Part shown: in pieces, positions 38,724 through 57,887 of the stretch
Position numbering within the stretch: position 1 is the first letter of the stretch
Layout: each line of letters begins with the position of its first letter
NCBI RefSeq assembly: GCF_022846255.1
Contig: NZ_AP025682.1
Length of the DNA stretch: 64,000 nucleotides
Strand: one strand, 5' to 3'
DNA from: Escherichia coli
Lineage (GTDB): Bacteria; Pseudomonadota; Gammaproteobacteria; Enterobacterales; Enterobacteriaceae
Program-made: the position numbers and the translations under genes
Notes under the pieces: generated by a model
Database searches by the model: none
The model's input: only the letters and a program-made list of their open reading frames with translations
Told to the model about the DNA's origin: nothing

Positions 38724-41312
38724 TCACATACACACAGTGCGCACCAGAAAAATACCAGTTGCTTCTTTCTCCTCTGGAAGTCGATAATTTGCACGGCAAG
38801 AACTGTTACGCCCCCATTGAACCTTCAACTGTCCGGTTTCATCCAGTCCGCTCAAATACACCTCTCCATTATCCCCCACAACCCCTGCCCCACCAGGCAT
38901 TTGACCTTTCTTTCCTTCCTCTGTCACCACAGCTCCAAAAGGCAGGCGAGAGCCGTCACTACGTGACAGAGTTATCAGTGCTCTTCCCCCTACTCGAGTG
39001 ATAAACTTCGCCCGAACCACGGCTCCCTTTGTAGGAACAACACGAGTATCTGTCTGTGATACTTCCACATTTTCCGGGAAAGTTGTCGGATCCAGTGTAA
39101 TAAGATTTTCTTGGTATGGAGATACATGATTCACAAGAGTGTAACCTCTGGTATCGGTCCTAACGCCAGGCAAACTCCCAACTGAAGCGCCATTAACTCC
39201 AGGTGCTACAACCAGAGCAACCGTATCCTCTCCTTTCTGACCAAGAGTGATACCTTCATTGTGGAGCACCATACCTCCTGATATACCAGCACTCATCTGG
39301 CGAATATGACTGCTGTAACTGTACATCCCCGCCAACTCACCATAGGTACCAAACCACCTCAAATTCAGTCGGCTACTGTCTACATTATTTTCACTTCCGG
39401 GAGCTATCCGCTCACTCACATCCCAATACAACCTACGGTCAAATGCGCGACCATTCAAACCGGTTTCGTACCAAGTATTCTGCCCCGTAGTTCTTTGCGT
39501 TTGAGTTGTAACATTAATATCGTTATCTCTACCCCCAATCCACTGCCCCAGAGGAATATTCATCCACAGATTGATACTATCCTCTATATGCCCTCTCTGA
39601 TAATATGCATTTGTACTATAGTTACGTGACCAATTAACGTACCACGAAATATTCTTCCATGACGTTCCATATGACATGCCGAAAGAATCCTGCTTCTGTC
39701 GGTTATGACGGAACTCATCACGGCTACCGTAAAGGCTCATATACCCCAGAGATCCCAGAGACTGATTAAGGCGTAATGTTGTCCGGCGACTCCTGTCCCC
39801 ACTATAACTATATGCACGAAAGTTATCATTTCTAAATGTACTCAGCACATCGGACAATGTGTGGAAGCCTGAGGACGTATACTGATATCTCGCCGCTGTC
39901 AAATCTGTATTCGTAAGTTCAAATGACTTGTTGTAACGCAGACGCCATGTCTCTCCCGTCTCCGTATCCCGTCCCTTCTGCTGACCGCGGGAATGAATGC
40001 CGTCAACCGACACCGCCCCCAGTCTGCCCATTGACCATCCCAGCCCCAGAGCCGCTGACTGATAATGCGATGACATCTGTGCTCCCCCGAAGGCCGTCAG
40101 CCCCCATGGCAGACCATACATGACACTCATCTGCCCCAGCGGTGAATGCTCAACAGCATCATCTGAAGAACGGTACTCCCCCCCGGCAATGCTGTACTTC
40201 ATATATCCCTCACGAAGCGCAATGGCCGGTGTGGTGTAAGGCACCGTAAACACCTGAGCAGTACCATCAGATTCCTGTACCGTTACCTGAAGGTCTCCAC
40301 CTGACCCCGTCAGCGGCAGGTCCGTCAGGGCAAATGCGCCCGGGGCCACCGTCCGGCTGTCAATCAGATAACCATTCTGGCGCACCTCAATCCTGGCCTG
40401 GGTCCGGGCAATACCTCTGACCACCGGCGCAAATTCACGCTGGTTATAAGGCACCATGCTCTCATCTGACCCCAGCATCACCCCACGGAACGGCACACTG
40501 TCAAAAATGTCTGAAGGCGTGTAATCCTCACCCAGCGTCAGACGACTTCTGAGACTGTTAATCCCCCGCTCCGCACGAATATAGGCACTCTCCCACTGCC
40601 CCGGCTGACCGGATGACCTGTTCCAGGTTGTCAGGTTACGCACCCGCCAGGGACCAAGATTAATGCCCGGCTCAAGAGTGACCCAGTAATTGTCAGTAAC
40701 CGATTTCCCGTATCCACGATATTCTGAACGACTGGTATTTGCCTGCCAGTTCAGCAGAAAAGCAGGAATACCATCATCCCATAAGGCCTCCGGCGCTATC
40801 CCCCTCAGTGGCGGGCGCAGGGCCACCTGAGGAATACTCAGCAGCAACTGCTGTGACGCAAACTGGTATGTTTCCGTGGCCTGTGGAATAACGGATAACT
40901 CAGCACAGGCGTCAGCTTCCTTTCCGTCATCCCCGTGAAACAACTCCGGATATTCCTCCGTCATGACACCATAGCGGGCCAGCATTTCCCGGGTCAGACA
41001 GGTTTTCAGATAAGTCTTACCCTCCGCATCTTTCTCCGTACGGAACGCCATGTCCCGCGAATCCACCCGCGAACCGTTCAGGATAATATCAACCGGATAG
41101 ATACCGGGCAGTTGGGCACCTTCTTCAAACAACGTCAGGTCCACCCCCTTTCCGCCACCTTTAAGCATGGAAGCATCAAAGGAGTATGTGCGGGCCTCAG
41201 TATTCCCGGTGTAAAGAAGGGTACAGGCCGCCATCACAGAGAGAGCAACCGCTGTAATTTTTGTTTTTACGCAATATAAAGATAAACCTGAAGATGACTT
41301 ATTCCTGTGCAT
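38724..41312 (-). CDS. afaC: fimbrial outer-membrane usher protein
   Basis: 862-aa ORF with signal peptide and usher N-terminal signature (FDASMLKGGGKGVDLTLFEEGAQLPGIYPVDIILNG); symbol by synteny with afaD-like gene. Confidence 0.8.
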   Translation of the reverse strand: MHRNKSSSGLSLYCVKTKITAVALSVMAACTLLYTGNTEARTYSFDASMLKGGGKGVDLTLFEEGAQLPGIYPVDIILNGSRVDSRDMAFRTEKDAEGKTYLKTCLTREMLARYGVMTEEYPELFHGDDGKEADACAELSVIPQATETYQFASQQLLLSIPQVALRPPLRGIAPEALWDDGIPAFLLNWQANTSRSEYRGYGKSVTDNYWVTLEPGINLGPWRVRNLTTWNRSSGQPGQWESAYIRAERGINSLRSRLTLGEDYTPSDIFDSVPFRGVMLGSDESMVPYNQREFAPVVRGIARTQARIEVRQNGYLIDSRTVAPGAFALTDLPLTGSGGDLQVTVQESDGTAQVFTVPYTTPAIALREGYMKYSIAGGEYRSSDDAVEHSPLGQMSVMYGLPWGLTAFGGAQMSSHYQSAALGLGWSMGRLGAVSVDGIHSRGQQKGRDTETGETWRLRYNKSFELTNTDLTAARYQYTSSGFHTLSDVLSTFRNDNFRAYSYSGDRSRRTTLRLNQSLGSLGYMSLYGSRDEFRHNRQKQDSFGMSYGTSWKNISWYVNWSRNYSTNAYYQRGHIEDSINLWMNIPLGQWIGGRDNDINVTTQTQRTTGQNTWYETGLNGRAFDRRLYWDVSERIAPGSENNVDSSRLNLRWFGTYGELAGMYSYSSHIRQMSAGISGGMVLHNEGITLGQKGEDTVALVVAPGVNGASVGSLPGVRTDTRGYTLVNHVSPYQENLITLDPTTFPENVEVSQTDTRVVPTKGAVVRAKFITRVGGRALITLSRSDGSRLPFGAVVTEEGKKGQMPGGAGVVGDNGEVYLSGLDETGQLKVQWGRNSSCRANYRLPEEKEATGIFLVRTVCM

Positions 41313-41479
41313 TATTCACACCTGAGCCACGGTTTCTTTTTATTTACATATGCCGGAGGATATACACACGTATTTGTGCGTTTGCACGCCTATTCACACA
41401 CACTTATTTCACACACGCTCAGTATTCAACCGGGTTAATCAAATAAGCCCGCCGCTGACGTTAATATTTATTCCGGCTT

Positions 41480-42247
41480 TCAGCTTTTTAATTCCGATTC
41501 AAACGGCTTACTCTTTCCGCCGTAATCCGTAATCACTGTCCAGCTGACTTTTCCTGATGCACCAGAAGGAATTTCATATTCGTAAGAGGAGTACGGAGAA
41601 ATATAACGATGCTCCTTAACCTCTTTCCCACCAACGCTCAGCTCTGAAATATTAATATAAAATGGTGTCGGGTTATTCCCTTTCAGTTTATTACCTGATT
41701 TTGTCCACTCCACTTTTCCGCCTGCATCCTCCGGACGCCCTTTAACCGCAGGCGGACGAACAAACAGCTTCACACAACTGCTGACGGAAAGATTTACCTG
41801 CAGGGTTGCCTTGTCAGCTTTCTTTTTATCAGCACCTTTCTCTTCTGCCCATCGGTCATCATGCTTTGGCGGAATGCCTTTCACACAAAGCCACTGCAGA
41901 CTCTCACGGTCCTCAGGAAAAACACCCCCGGTACGGACAATTCGCAAACGGCTCGACTGAAGTGCATCCAGACGGAAAAGCGGCGGCGTCACCACAAAGG
42001 GGGCCGGGTCCTTCTGATTCTCTGCCAGCACCTCTGACTGAACCAGCATCGGATAATCCAGGTCATTCATTACCGTCAGTGAGGCCCCCGATGAATCCAG
42101 GTTGTAAAACACCCTTGTGGCCCCCAGATGCAGGGAAAAAACCTTTGACGTAGTCTTCGTGCTTTCCTGGTTTCCGGCTGCCATTACGCCGGAAGCCGGC
42201 AACCCCGCCAGTATGCCAACGAGCGCTGCAAGATGTCTGATTTTCAT
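41480..42247 (-). CDS. afaB: periplasmic pilus chaperone (PapD-like)
   Basis: 255-aa ORF with signal peptide and conserved chaperone core (PFVVTPPLFRLDALQSSRLRIV); symbol by synteny. Confidence 0.8.
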   Translation of the reverse strand: MKIRHLAALVGILAGLPASGVMAAGNQESTKTTSKVFSLHLGATRVFYNLDSSGASLTVMNDLDYPMLVQSEVLAENQKDPAPFVVTPPLFRLDALQSSRLRIVRTGGVFPEDRESLQWLCVKGIPPKHDDRWAEEKGADKKKADKATLQVNLSVSSCVKLFVRPPAVKGRPEDAGGKVEWTKSGNKLKGNNPTPFYINISELSVGGKEVKEHRYISPYSSYEYEIPSGASGKVSWTVITDYGGKSKPFESELKS

Positions 42248-52997: not shown

Positions 52998-53068
52998 GGA
53001 GATATTCGCCGGAGCATATCACAACTGAGGTGTACTGGCAATAGCGGACACTACCACTTGTTCTTTTT

Positions 53069-53887
53069 TTAAGCAGCCATCTGATGATATTTTTCCCTGA
53101 AGGCTGCCGGGGAGATATTCCCCAGACGAGAGTGACGACGCTGACGATTGTAGAAAATCTCAATGTATTCCCGTATTACTGAGATGGCTTCATCCCGGTT
53201 ATTAAAACGATAGTGGCTCAGGCTCTCATTTTTCAGCGTTCCCCAGAAGCTTTCCATCGGAGCGTTGTCGTAACAGTTACCTTTACGCGACATTGATGTT
53301 TTCAGACCAAACTGCTCCTGTATGACCCGGTAATCGTATGCGCAGTACTGTGAACCTCGATCAGAGTGGTGGATTAGCCCGGCAGGTGGGCGCTGGCTCC
53401 TGAGCGCCATAAACAGGGCTTTACCTGTCAGCTCTTTTGTCATGCGCTCTCCCATGGCGTAGCCGACAATTTCGCACGTATAAACATCTTTGATGCCAGC
53501 GAGGTACAACCATCCCTCCTGTGTGGCAACATACGTCAGGTCCGCCACCCAGACCTAATTTGGTGCTGTAGGAGCGAACGTCTGGTTCAGCAGATTTGGC
53601 GCAACTGGCAGATTGTGGTTCGAGTTCGTAGTCGCTCTGAACTTGCGTTTCTGCTTACAGCGTAGCCTTAGCTCCTTACGAAGACGTGCCAGTCGGTCTC
53701 GACCAACGATGATGCCATTCTCTGCCAGCTCTGTCTGGAGCCGCCGGGTTCCATATGTTTCGCGAGTGCGGATATGTGCCACCTTAATCTCCAGTTTTAG
53801 CCGCTCATCACTTTGTTTTCTGTCTGAGGGTTCATGCTGTACCCAGTTGTAATAACCGCTCCTGGATACACCAAATACCTGACACAT
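53069..53887 (-). pseudogene. IS3-family (IS600-like) transposase OrfB with premature TAG
   Basis: Track ORFs 53555..53887 and 53069..53548 are one DDE transposase (..APTAPN * VWVADLTYVATQEGWLYLAG..HHSDRGSQY..) split by an amber codon where Gln (CAG) is expected. Confidence 0.7.
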
Positions 53888-53964
53888 CGCTTCAATGGGA
53901 AATTGTTGTCGCCATTGTTCGATTAACGCGTATTTTTCAGCGACTCCTGTGCAAAATACGCTGT

Positions 53965-55185
53965 TGTAGATTCAATCTGTCAATGCAACACCCCTTTCAA
54001 TTATCTCTTTCGGTGTTTTGAACTTCAGTGTCTTTCTCGGTCTGTTGTTTAGCTGAGCAGCAACCAGATCTAGTTCATGTTGAGTATATTGGGCAAGACA
54101 TGTCTTTTTAGGAAAGTACTGCCGAATTAGCCCATTTGTGTTCTCATTTGTTCCCCGCTGCCAAGGACTCTGAGGATCGCAGAAGTAAACTTTAACGCCG
54201 GTGCTGACAGTAAATTCTAGATGTCTGGCCAGTTCCATTCCTCTGTCCCATGTCAGTGATTTTCTGAGTTCTGACGGTAAACTCAGGAATTTGTCGGTAA
54301 GAGCCTGATTTACTGAGACAGAATCTTTGCCCCTGAGTCTAAGGATGATCGTATAACGTGATTTTCGGTCTACAAGTGTGGCTATATGAGAGTTTTTTGT
54401 ACCTGAGACTAAATCGCCCTCCCAATGCCCCAGAGAGCGTCTGTTATCGATATTTCGGGAACGTTCGTGAATTGGTGTTCCGTTCACTATGTTAATCGTA
54501 CCTCTTTCGCCTTTGCGGGTATGACGCCTGCCATGGCGAAGGCTATGCGACCGTCGCAGATGCTGTATATTCAGGTGGTGTAGCGCTTCACGGCTACGAA
54601 AGTACAGCGTTTTATAAATTGTCTCAGGTGATATTCGCAGCGTTTTTTGACGTGGTTTTGTTCGCCTTAACCATCCTGATATTTGCTCTGGAGACCATTT
54701 CATCTCCAGCTTTTCCAGAACAAGCTTTCGCAATGGTAAATTTTGATCCAGTAAGCACGGTTTTGGCCTTTTCGCCATTCTGTTGGCTCGGTTATTAGCA
54801 TCAACAGCTTTGTAATAGCGTCTGCCCCGATTACGCTGAACTTCACGTGAGATCGTCGAAGGACTGCGATTCAGCGCAGTAGCTATCGCACGAATGCTCA
54901 TTTTGGCTGACAAACCAGCTCGTATCTCCTCGCGCTCAGACAGTGTCAGGTGAGCTACAGCCCGCTTACGCTCATGGGGTTTTATGCCGCCAGTATCCCT
55001 TAACATAGTGAAGATCGTTCCGGGTTTTGAACCCAGGATATTCGCTATTTCACTGAAGCCTGTTCCGTTCTTCCATAGTTCAAAAACAGAGGCTTTTTCC
55101 TCTGCTGTAAATGTTCGTCTCATTCAAAAAACCTCCGCAACCCCATGTTTTCACATAACTGTTGCGTTGATCAATTGAATCTACA
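53965..55185 (-). mobile_element. IS30 (1221 bp) inserted into the IS600-like orfA
   Basis: Ends TGTAGATTCAATCTGTCAATGCAACA ... GTTGCGTTGATCAATTGAATCTACA; flanked by a 2-bp direct repeat GT; contains one 383-aa transposase. Confidence 0.85.
53972..55123 (-). CDS. IS30 transposase
   Basis: 383-aa ORF MRRTFTAEEKASVFELWKNGTGFSEIANILGSKPGTIFTMLRDTGG... with HTH and DDE regions; apparently intact. Confidence 0.85.
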   Translation of the reverse strand: MRRTFTAEEKASVFELWKNGTGFSEIANILGSKPGTIFTMLRDTGGIKPHERKRAVAHLTLSEREEIRAGLSAKMSIRAIATALNRSPSTISREVQRNRGRRYYKAVDANNRANRMAKRPKPCLLDQNLPLRKLVLEKLEMKWSPEQISGWLRRTKPRQKTLRISPETIYKTLYFRSREALHHLNIQHLRRSHSLRHGRRHTRKGERGTINIVNGTPIHERSRNIDNRRSLGHWEGDLVSGTKNSHIATLVDRKSRYTIILRLRGKDSVSVNQALTDKFLSLPSELRKSLTWDRGMELARHLEFTVSTGVKVYFCDPQSPWQRGTNENTNGLIRQYFPKKTCLAQYTQHELDLVAAQLNNRPRKTLKFKTPKEIIERGVALTD

Positions 55186-55448
55186 GTTGCTTTTTTTAAT
55201 ATATCTCGCTCAAGGCGAGCTTCATTTAACGCCTTACGCAGTTGCAGAATTTCAGATTCCAGTTCAGCCAGCGTGCGGGAACCAGGAGTACCGAGCCCTT
55301 TTCTGGCGGCGGTAACCCATTGTCCTAAAGTGCCTTCAGGAAGAGATAATCGGGAAGCGCCTTCACTGCTCGAAAGTTGATTTTCAAGAACCATTCTGAC
55401 AGCTTCGGCTTTGAACTCTTTAGAGTAACGTTGGGTTTTTCTGCTCAT
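55186..55448 (-). pseudogene. IS3-family (IS600-like) transposase OrfA, C-terminus displaced by the IS30 insertion
   Basis: MSRKTQRYSKEFKAEAVRMVLENQ...LERDILKKAT then the IS30 end; the remaining codons (AYFAQESLKNTR*) resume on the far side of IS30 at ~53925-53962. Confidence 0.7.
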
Positions 55449-55985
55449 TATTAGCTCCTTCTGATGCCATTCTATTTCAGGAAGGAGTGTCCGTTAAACT
55501 CAGGCTACCTCACAACAGGGGACAGACAACGCACGGGATAAAAGGGACGTTTTCGTCAGAATGTTGTTCTGCCGGCGCTGCATGTTCTCCCCGTATTCTG
55601 GCCAGTGTGATGCCAGTGTAAATTCATGTCAAAAAGTGTCAGCGAGAAAATTTACACCTGAAAAAGTCGGTCGTAAAACTGTTTCATGGCGAAACATCAG
55701 GAAGTATGTCAGAAATGTGATCGCTATTGTGGTTTTACGGAAGAGCATAAGGCAAAAAACGGCGGGAAATTCATTGACATTCACGGAGGATAAACAGCAC
55801 CATTTTATTATCCAGCAAGAAAACCGTAATCCCCCTCTGAATCCGGACAAGGTTCGTACTGGCAACATAACCTGAAATGGCACTAATGGCCAGAGCTTAC
55901 TAATACATAATCCCTACAGGATGTAGCCACCAGTTTTGTTCATCCGGTATTCTGATTTGGTAACATGCTCCAGAAAGGAAGAAAT

Positions 55986-57218
55986 ATGTACTGCAATGAA
56001 TTAAAAGAATTTGCGCAAGAGCAGGAACAAAAACTTATCAGTGCGCTTGCTGATACCAGAGAGCACCCGTCCCCCGATGGTGAAACAAGAAGCCGGGATA
56101 ATTATCAACGGGATTACGCGCGTATTCTGTATTCATCATCATTTCGCAGGTTGCAGGGAAAGATGCAACTTTTTGAAATTGATCCTGAAAAATTCAACAG
56201 AAACAGATTAACGCACAGTCTTGAGGTTGCTCAGATCGCCCGAAGTATCGCGTCAGACCTCAAACTGGTTAACCCGGTGGTGGTTGAACTGGCAGCTCTG
56301 GCGCATGACATCGGAAATCCTCCTTTCGGTCATTCCGGTGAAAAACTGCTTAATGAACTGTCTGAAGAAATCGGCGGCTATGAAGGTAATGCACAGGCGC
56401 TACGTATCCTGAGAAAACTGGAGAAGAAATTTTCATACTGCAACGGATTAAATCTGACTCACCGTAGTTTACTTTCGGTTGTTAAGTATCCCGCCCCTCG
56501 CACTGCAACTACTGCCGGCAAGTTCATTTATGATGATGACTTTGATTTTTATACTAACCTGCTTGCTGAAAATCAGCTCGATCTGAATCCCGGAGAGAAA
56601 ACGATTGATGCACAGATAATGGATCTCGCGGATGAGATTGCCTACGCTGCGCATGACCTGGAAGATGCCCTTAGCAGGAACATGGTCACGATTGAAGATA
56701 TTGAATATGAGTTTCAGATTTCTGACGAATTCCGGGGAGCGAGGGAACAGTTCAGGGAAATCGTTACTCAGTCGAGAAACACCGCTTTTCAGGCTAACTT
56801 ACTGAAAACCTCAGAAGAATTTGCCATCATATTCCGCAAGGAGTTAACTTCAAATATTGTCAATCGCCTCGTTGCTGATATTTCTGTAGTAACGAACCTG
56901 AATGGTTTTCAGGAACTGGGATTCGGGAAACTGAATGCGTTATCCGAAGGGCTCAAAAAACTTCTCTTTAAAGTCATCATGCGAAAACGTAATATCCTCA
57001 CCTATGAGTTCAGGGGAAATAAAATAATCAGGGATTTATATGACTTTTACAATGAAGGAGAGAATTATAAATTTCTGCCTCCTGAACTTAAATTCACCTT
57101 ACCCCAACCAGATTCCTGTATATTTGAAATCAGCAAAAAACGAGCAGTGGTTGACTATATTTCAGGTATGATGGATACATTTGCAGTCAAGGAATGGGAA
57201 ACTCACTGTCTGAAGTAA
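55986..57218 (+). CDS. Dgt-family HD-domain dNTP triphosphohydrolase-like protein (dGTPase-like)
   Basis: ORF track 55965..57218; HD motifs RLTHSLEVAQIARSIA and LAHDIGNPPFGHSGE plus EGNAQALRIL; RBS AAAGGAAG before ATG at 55986; AT-rich island gene. Confidence 0.8.
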   Translation: MYCNELKEFAQEQEQKLISALADTREHPSPDGETRSRDNYQRDYARILYSSSFRRLQGKMQLFEIDPEKFNRNRLTHSLEVAQIARSIASDLKLVNPVVVELAALAHDIGNPPFGHSGEKLLNELSEEIGGYEGNAQALRILRKLEKKFSYCNGLNLTHRSLLSVVKYPAPRTATTAGKFIYDDDFDFYTNLLAENQLDLNPGEKTIDAQIMDLADEIAYAAHDLEDALSRNMVTIEDIEYEFQISDEFRGAREQFREIVTQSRNTAFQANLLKTSEEFAIIFRKELTSNIVNRLVADISVVTNLNGFQELGFGKLNALSEGLKKLLFKVIMRKRNILTYEFRGNKIIRDLYDFYNEGENYKFLPPELKFTLPQPDSCIFEISKKRAVVDYISGMMDTFAVKEWETHCLK

Positions 57219-57317
57219 CACTGTCGATTACCAGAGGCGCATATTTTCCCGTTATGGTTATTGCGCCTTTATTCCGTTTCGGTGACAGGTTATTTTAAAT
57301 ATTCTGGAAATGCGTTG

Positions 57318-57887
57318 ATGGGCAAGAACAATTACCCTGAAAATAAATACAGGAAATGGTTTTCCACAGCAATAACATATCTTATTACAGGTGGTTTGTG
57401 CTGGTATATGTTGTGGGCATCCGCTATATCTCATTATACTGTTTTACAAAATACGGTACCTGAATGGACAACATATTTTTGCACCGGTATAATCACCGGA
57501 TCTCTTTCTTTTATTTATGCATTTTATATCCGCACCTTTAACAGAACATTAAAGTATTTATTAAATGCATTCACGGGGGGATTTTGTCTTGGATTTATAC
57601 TGAGTCTGAACTGTTACGATGTCTGTGTTTATCTTTTTCCGGATAAGGTTATTAGCTATGAATCTGAATATGATGTTGTTTTTCCGGGACCATCAAGAGG
57701 AAAGTATGGACATTGTGAAGCGGGACTCTGGTTGAAAGATCAAAACACTTCCAGATGGATACAACTTTGTACAAATAAAGAGTTCCTGCGCAGTCACCAT
57801 AAACAGGGGATGACAGGTGTATGGGTAACAGCTCGTGTTAATAAAATTGGGTCGTATATCGTGAAATATGAATTTATCTATATGTAG
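57318..57887 (+). CDS. hypothetical membrane protein (3 predicted TM helices plus ~90-aa soluble C-terminal domain)
   Basis: ORF track 57261..57887; hydrophobic segments ITYLITGGLCWYMLWASAI, GIITGSLSFIYAFYI, FTGGFCLGFILSLNCY; starts ~100 bp after the dGTPase-like gene on the same strand. Confidence 0.55.
   Translation: MGKNNYPENKYRKWFSTAITYLITGGLCWYMLWASAISHYTVLQNTVPEWTTYFCTGIITGSLSFIYAFYIRTFNRTLKYLLNAFTGGFCLGFILSLNCYDVCVYLFPDKVISYESEYDVVFPGPSRGKYGHCEAGLWLKDQNTSRWIQLCTNKEFLRSHHKQGMTGVWVTARVNKIGSYIVKYEFIYM

Follow-up and report, generated by a model that had tools for sequence, protein, structure and literature searches.

IS30 favors near-palindromic hot-spot sequences and makes 2-bp target duplications (PMC9333248). 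Two of its copies in Escherichia coli K-12 are found together with members of the IS3 family. IS30A of the CP4-6 prophage lies inside IS911A at ...ATATTAAAAAAGGCT[AC], in the Thr codon of ILKKAT just past the slippery run, and IS30D belongs to a cluster with insM and IS911B in the KpLE2 region of strain MG1655 (4,507,125–4,509,801). One end of IS30D is joined there to insM, a 327-bp piece of the 5′ part of IS600, and the other end abuts the frameshift window of IS911B at a point homologous to the IS600 junction; the 3′ part of IS600 is missing. Annotated public genomes already contain IS600, IS30 and also the one nested in the other, and the novelty of the arrangement is low.

Here we describe a complete nested unit of this kind in a window of 64,000 nucleotides, by which we mean the whole stretch of E. 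coli DNA that was analyzed (assembly GCF_022846255.1, contig NZ_AP025682.1). The features of the unit and of its surroundings are as follows.

53026–55512, minus strand (sense of IS600): IS600::IS30 nested unit of 2487 bp, whose boundaries are set by the empty site in E. coli genome L006
53022–53025, no strand: left copy of the IS600 target duplication, CAAC, from the L006 empty site
55513–55516, no strand: right copy of the IS600 target duplication, CAAC, from the L006 empty site
53026–53964, minus strand: 3′ part of IS600 (IS600 positions 326–1264), carrying orfB with its DDE (rve) domain and the right inverted repeat, from ungapped alignment to canonical IS600 and Pfam matches to HTH_21 and rve
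55186–55512, minus strand: 5′ part of IS600 (positions 1–327), with the left inverted repeat, orfA codons 1–88 and the A7 slippery run; it equals the 327-bp insM fragment beside K-12 IS30D, with an identical junction
55191–55197, minus strand: A7 slippery heptamer of the programmed −1 frameshift (IS600 316–322), annotated by RefSeq as "programmed frameshift" on intact copies
53555–53557, minus strand: amber TAG for CAG at Gln144 of orfB (Q144*; IS600 position 733, C>T), with CAG in 7/7 comparators
55080–55448, minus strand: truncated OrfA′ frame of 88 IS600 codons and a 34-codon tail from IS30, from the list of open reading frames; it carries T19M, I27S and V60L
53965–55185, minus strand: complete IS30, 1221 bp, with IRR at 53965 and IRL at 55185
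53972–55123, minus strand: intact IS30 transposase gene, 383 aa, whose protein is identical to K-12 InsI and WP_001254932
53963–53964, no strand: left copy of the IS30 target duplication, GT on the plus strand (AC in the IS600 sense), from flank comparison with uninterrupted IS600
55186–55187, no strand: right copy of the IS30 target duplication, GT on the plus strand, from the same comparison
51584–53025, minus strand: cdiB pseudogene (ShlB/FhaC/HecB-type), 97.7% identical to L006 cdiB, whose 5′ end is the IS600 target
45341–46372: transposase of the IS630 family
46547–49903: nanX-nanY-yjhDE block, 98.4% identical to K-12, a divergence of the E. coli/Shigella level

The initial annotation described IS30 nested in orfA of an IS3-family element that it called IS600-like. 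The nesting, the 1221-bp length of IS30 and the IS3-family assignment all survive alignment to reference sequences and comparison with empty sites, and the name of the host can be made more precise. In silico removal of IS30 and one GT leaves an element of exactly 1264 bp that aligns without indels to seven reference IS600 sequences. Against the copy on the Shigella sonnei 53G plasmid and intact E. coli copies it shows 7 mismatches over 1264 bp in an ungapped alignment (99.4% identity), where membership was set at 95% nucleotide identity or more to a reference IS600 across the 1264 bp. The excised element regains both its reading frames: the orfA, as had been proposed, at positions 65–367 (100 codons, HTH_Tnp_1) and an orfB frame open from position 304 (HTH_21 and rve). 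We therefore assign the host to IS600 itself on the basis of this identity.

The ends of the host were also revised. Its right end had been placed at 55512, where it stays, and its left end at 53036, whereas three lines of evidence move the latter 10 bp further left, to 53026. The element then begins and ends as TGAGGT...ACCTCA (TG...CA), and its inverted repeats, which include the GGACACT core, match at 25 of 45 positions when counted from 53026 versus 17 of 45 from 53036. Matches to the left flank in E. coli, in all of the top ones listed, end at window position 53025 (380 E. coli genomes cover at least 80% of the left-flank query). The empty site of genome L006 reads ...ATATCACAACAGGGG..., and the two window flanks overlap there by exactly CAAC. 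L006 has the cdiA-cdiB-dGTPase gene order of the window without the insertion sequences; cdiA itself is absent from the window locus. The IS600 duplication is thus 4 bp (CAAC) here, and it is 3 bp (GCG) at the other IS600 site examined.

Comparison with the empty site places the insertion of IS600 in the annotated 5′ end of cdiB, at about codon 23 of the L006 gene, and not just upstream of a tpsB-like gene as had been supposed. This cdiB is a decayed pseudogene with frameshifts and without residues 503–590, and its pseudogene status, with the frameshifts and the lost C-terminus, is independent of the insertion. As to the suggestion that other insertion sequence copies mark the region, the window carries an IS630-family transposase, listed above, no insertion sequence is present twice, and a search for repeats of at least 150 bp returned no further copy of IS30 or IS600. 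The 25 kb around the nested unit are contiguous in no complete E. coli genome, none of the 5,426 complete genomes of E. coli showed the cdiB insertion site of the window, and scans of species-representative genomes for exact matches to the IS600/IS30 junction and to the unique cdiB flank found nothing.

The inner element is a complete IS30 with termini TGTAGATTCAAT...ATTGAATCTACA. Its imperfect 26-bp inverted repeats, beginning TGTAGATTCAAT, match at 22 of 26 positions, compared with 23 of 26 in K-12 IS30D, from which the window copy differs by two substitutions. One of these, A755G, is common to every other nested copy examined, and the other, G15A, is private to the window copy and falls in IRL at window position 55171. 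The transposase is encoded by a single open reading frame with an N-terminal HTH (Pfam: HTH_38, 1.6e-23) and a DDE catalytic domain (rve, 4.1e-14). Canonical uninterrupted IS600 has only one AC at positions 326–327, so the GT direct repeat reported around IS30 did not arise by chance but is a genuine duplication of 2 bp. The copy thus has the length and ends, the single HTH/DDE frame and the 2-bp duplication of the IS30 family, and the terminal repeats and target duplications of the unit hold on alignment to reference IS30 and IS600. With its transposase and both ends intact and one private change in IRL, this IS30 may still transpose.

The host has fared differently. All seven differences between the window copy and canonical IS600 are private to it among the best matches in the 5,426 complete E. 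coli genomes and the plasmid collection. They include the amber codon in orfB, which had been noted previously as TAG in place of Gln and for which all seven comparators have CAG; Q144* lies just past the start of the match to the rve catalytic domain. The amber allele was not found among the best matches in E. coli genomes and plasmids, nor was the 32-mer that contains it found in metagenome contigs. Three further changes alter orfA (T19M, I27S, and V60L), two are synonymous in orfB, and one is non-coding and close to the right end, so that 4 of the 6 coding changes are non-synonymous or nonsense, a mix that looks like relaxed constraint. IS30 entered at codon 88 of orfA, within the overlap of orfA and orfB and 3 nt beyond the A7 run, and the slippery site and orfB are now 1.2 kb apart with IS30 between them. 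Because IS30 parts the slippery site from orfB, the OrfAB fusion transposase should not be producible, and the way in which IS3-family elements make their transposase leads us to infer that OrfAB is no longer made. Given both the IS30 insertion and Q144*, a functional transposase is not predicted, and we classify the window IS600 as a defective member of its kind, a dead and decaying copy whose ends are intact.

The same nesting is frequent among E. coli genomes. The full 2487-bp unit is present in 996 of 5,426 complete genomes (99.6–99.7% identity over the full length), and a 160-bp IS600/IS30 junction in about 1,089 of 5,426, with identity up to 100%. In 332 genomes, a junction at the same dinucleotide has IS30 the other way round. 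Simple addition of the two junction counts gives about 1,400 of 5,426 genomes, though some genomes carry both. Composites with the same IS30 orientation as in the window are found in at least seven different contexts, with neighbors that include a prophage exonuclease gene, the yjiS/STY4851 region, the fec/DUF4432 locus and a plasmid nikB-espP interval, among others. The nesting is a recurrent event, which these matches find in about one in four complete E. coli genomes, and no peculiarity of this region.

The preferred target is the AC at IS600 positions 326–327, within conserved codons for ILKKAT. In at least two genomes (L014 and L015), IS30 lies in reverse orientation within a complete IS600, again at this AC, which is perfectly duplicated. 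Two loci are found in two states. At the fec locus, IS600 is uninterrupted in L008 and nested in L003, with identical flanks, and at the exo-prophage site it is uninterrupted in H170/L017 and H173 and nested in about 30 genomes, with identical flanks and the same GCG duplication in both states. The uninterrupted IS600 for which a check of other genomes had been proposed is present at these two loci, and it was not found at the cdiB site. Other IS3-family elements are hosts as well: K-12 IS30A, within IS911A, shares the orientation and the AC duplication, and L013 has an IS30 end abutting a third IS3-family element, labeled only "transposase" by RefSeq, whose OrfA ends in ...ERDILKKA. Because of the opposite orientation, the two-state loci and the other IS3-family hosts, we conclude that IS30 has entered IS600 at the AC dinucleotide more than once. 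IS30 therefore strikes IS3-family elements recurrently at one hot spot, in the ILKKA codons and 3 nt beyond the slippery run.

We are more cautious about a wider proposal, which we offer as a possibility that falls short of the probable. In it, a natural hot spot of IS30 would be the conserved frameshift window of several IS3-family elements (DNA ATATTAAAAAA[A/G]GCN[A/G]C, protein ILKKA); IS30 would systematically disable IS600, IS911 and their relatives, would land where it does no harm and be carried along on their copies, and would seed rearrangements such as that of K-12 IS30D. The IS3-family frameshift window is not stated to be an IS30 landing site in the literature searched, though earlier studies of how IS30 selects its targets may imply it. 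If the proposal is true, such interference between insertion sequences is perhaps not explicitly described for IS600, nor at such a population scale.

With respect to the history of the window locus, we think it likely that the unit arose in two steps. IS600, an IS3-family element of 1264 bp, transposed into the 5′ end of cdiB and duplicated CAAC, and IS30, of 1221 bp, would have integrated later and in place at IS600 AC 326–327, duplicating AC. The second step would have split the slippery site from orfB by 1.2 kb, with the loss of OrfAB, and left an OrfA′ of 88 + 34 residues. We infer the later, in-place entry of IS30 here from the other two loci and from an asymmetry in substitutions, of which 7 private ones lie in the IS600 part and 1 in the IS30 part (Fisher p = 0.07, not significant at 0.05); this asymmetry fits an old, decaying IS600 resident with a younger IS30 and is suggestive, not proof. 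The composite might instead have come to cdiB as a single 2487-bp unit, mobilized in trans by an IS600 transposase through its intact outer ends. Arrival as a unit would agree with the clean target duplication that brackets the whole composite and with the existence of an empty site elsewhere, as it would with the constant orientation of IS30 in at least seven contexts and with the lack of any genome, among the 5,426 complete E. coli genomes, that has IS600 alone at the cdiB site. However, both testable loci show an IS600-only state with identical flanks, and IS30 thus entered in place there, while the insertions in opposite orientation represent independent IS30 events. IS3-family transposases, for example OrfAB of IS911, act preferentially in cis, and the 7 private changes against 1 also speak against a joint arrival. 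We judge movement of the composite as a unit to be unlikely; it was ranked low once IS600-only states turned up at two other composite loci.

A route by homologous recombination, in which IS30 was copied by gene conversion into a resident IS600 from another IS600::IS30 copy in the cell, seems to us less probable again. The 939 bp and 325 bp of homology that flank IS30 would allow such an exchange, which would also account for the one dominant orientation across sites, and the IS30 part has the A755G common to other composites. Private SNPs of IS600 nevertheless lie at position 242, 84 bp from the junction, and at position 558, 231 bp from it, so that a conversion tract would have to end inside these two short stretches, and the demonstrated hot spot removes the need for such a route. 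A search for SNP markers common to the composites that would point to a shared origin found nothing informative, as the IS600 halves carry the canonical sequence and the common 755G is all that the IS30 halves share. Finally, insertion sequences present in many copies are well known to cause misassembly, and reads from separate IS30 and IS600 copies could have been mis-joined, but the same junctions are found base for base in about a thousand independently finished genomes, K-12 included, the expected 2-bp duplication is present at both junctions, and private SNPs lie on both sides of IS30; we give an assembly artefact almost no credence. Against the two-step history stand the lack, among the 5,426 complete E. 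coli genomes, of one with IS600 only at the cdiB site, the p value of 0.07 for the 7:1 asymmetry and a CAAC duplication one base longer than that of the other IS600 site.

For annotation, the consequence is that positions 53026–55512 are to be treated as one nested unit, not as three unrelated transposase fragments. The significance for the window itself is small: at the margin of a contact-dependent inhibition locus that has decayed, IS600 is dead and IS30 is possibly still live. We regard the finding as ordinary biology, and the hot-spot pattern, of modest interest, as its only notable point. The junction, carried by about one in five complete E. coli genomes, arose more than once and is a useful marker in the interpretation of IS-rich regions, and the nesting offers a clean natural example of one insertion sequence targeting another site-specifically.

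The closest known systems include the nested copies in RefSeq (for example ATCC 8739, FORC_064, and the 2013C-4991 plasmid), with the same 2487-bp length, insertion point and orientation as the window copy and 99.6–99.7% identity; the window copy differs from them by 8 private substitutions, which include the amber codon and G15A in IRL. The natural IS30 hot spots are comparable in that insertion is site-specific and duplicates 2 bp and in that the left half-site is A-rich (...G(C/G)..); the IS600 left half-site resembles those of ydbA/IS30C, the lambda LHS and also IS911A, a qualitative match for which three sites were compared and which fits the published preference of IS30 for near-palindromic sequences. 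A near-palindromic 24-bp consensus for IS30 targets was reportedly described by Olasz et al. in 1998. The K-12 IS30A insertion corresponds to that of the window in the homologous codon, but its host is IS911, another IS3-family member, and its right half-site is unrelated in sequence. The K-12 IS30D cluster has the same 327-bp IS600 5′ part as the window, in the same orientation relative to the nanX-nanY block, and an identical junction (...ATATTAAAAAAAGCAAC joined to TGTAGATTCAATTG), whereas in the window the nested element is complete, lies elsewhere (in cdiB) and has its own target duplication. With the 3′ part of IS600 missing, the K-12 cluster looks like a deletion derivative, and the nested junction explains the odd IS30D/insM/insO arrangement in K-12.

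The frameshift window of IS3-family elements, where IS30 has repeatedly inserted just past the slippery run (the ILKKA codons), adjoins IS30 ends at two further E. coli loci, the K-12 MG1655 region (L005) and a locus of strain M217 (L013):

L005 9126-11802: K-12 series IS911B / IS30D / IS600 / IS911B-1
L013 3583-5100: hybrid junction in the cob region of E. coli M217, running from the 5' part of IS600 through IS30 into a third, unnamed IS3-family element

The K-12 copy, IS30D, is bordered on one side by the frameshift window of IS911B and on the other by that of IS600, in inverted orientation, an arrangement that looks like the outcome of a deletion which IS30 mediated from one hot spot to another and which took away the 3' part of IS600. 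In the hybrid junction of M217, OrfA of the third element terminates in ...ERDILKKA; here again an IS30 end meets the frameshift window of an IS3-family element. In the IS30 copy nested in IS600 in the window, position 15 of the left inverted repeat is changed from G to A (window 55171), a private difference that a base-by-base comparison found neither in K-12 IS30D nor in four nested copies of the same orientation.

The nested unit lies among the following genes of the window:

38724-42247: fimbrial genes of the chaperone-usher type that encode an usher (862 aa) and a PapD-like chaperone (255 aa)
45341-46372: IS630-family transposase ORF of 343 aa, intact-looking, with DDE_3 and HTH domains
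55965-57887: dGTPase-family gene of 417 aa with HD and HD_assoc domains, then an ORF of 208 aa

The IS630-family ORF was the only IS-type gene checked in the window besides IS600 and IS30. The fimbrial genes lie upstream of the IS-rich stretch within the same island-like region, which has only about 95-96% identity to complete E. coli genomes. A decayed cdiB pseudogene (ShlB/FhaC/HecB) occupies 51584-53025, with at least two frame changes and residues 503-590 gone; homology to intact cdi loci begins abruptly at 51584, and cdiA is absent. The order cdiB, dGTPase-family gene, small hypothetical gene recurs in an E. coli genome with an IS-free empty site (L006). A Pfam search with the 208-aa ORF returned no match; together with the dGTPase-family gene it may form a nucleotide-depletion defence module.

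The nanX-nanY-yjhD/E block (window 46547-49903) is 98.4% identical to K-12 4,503,516-4,506,874 (L005). An IS30/IS600 junction follows this block by approximately 0.25 kb in K-12, whereas in the window the same junction, in the same orientation, lies 3.1 kb past it. This shared proximity could be coincidence or could reflect the local history of the leuX/KpLE2 island.
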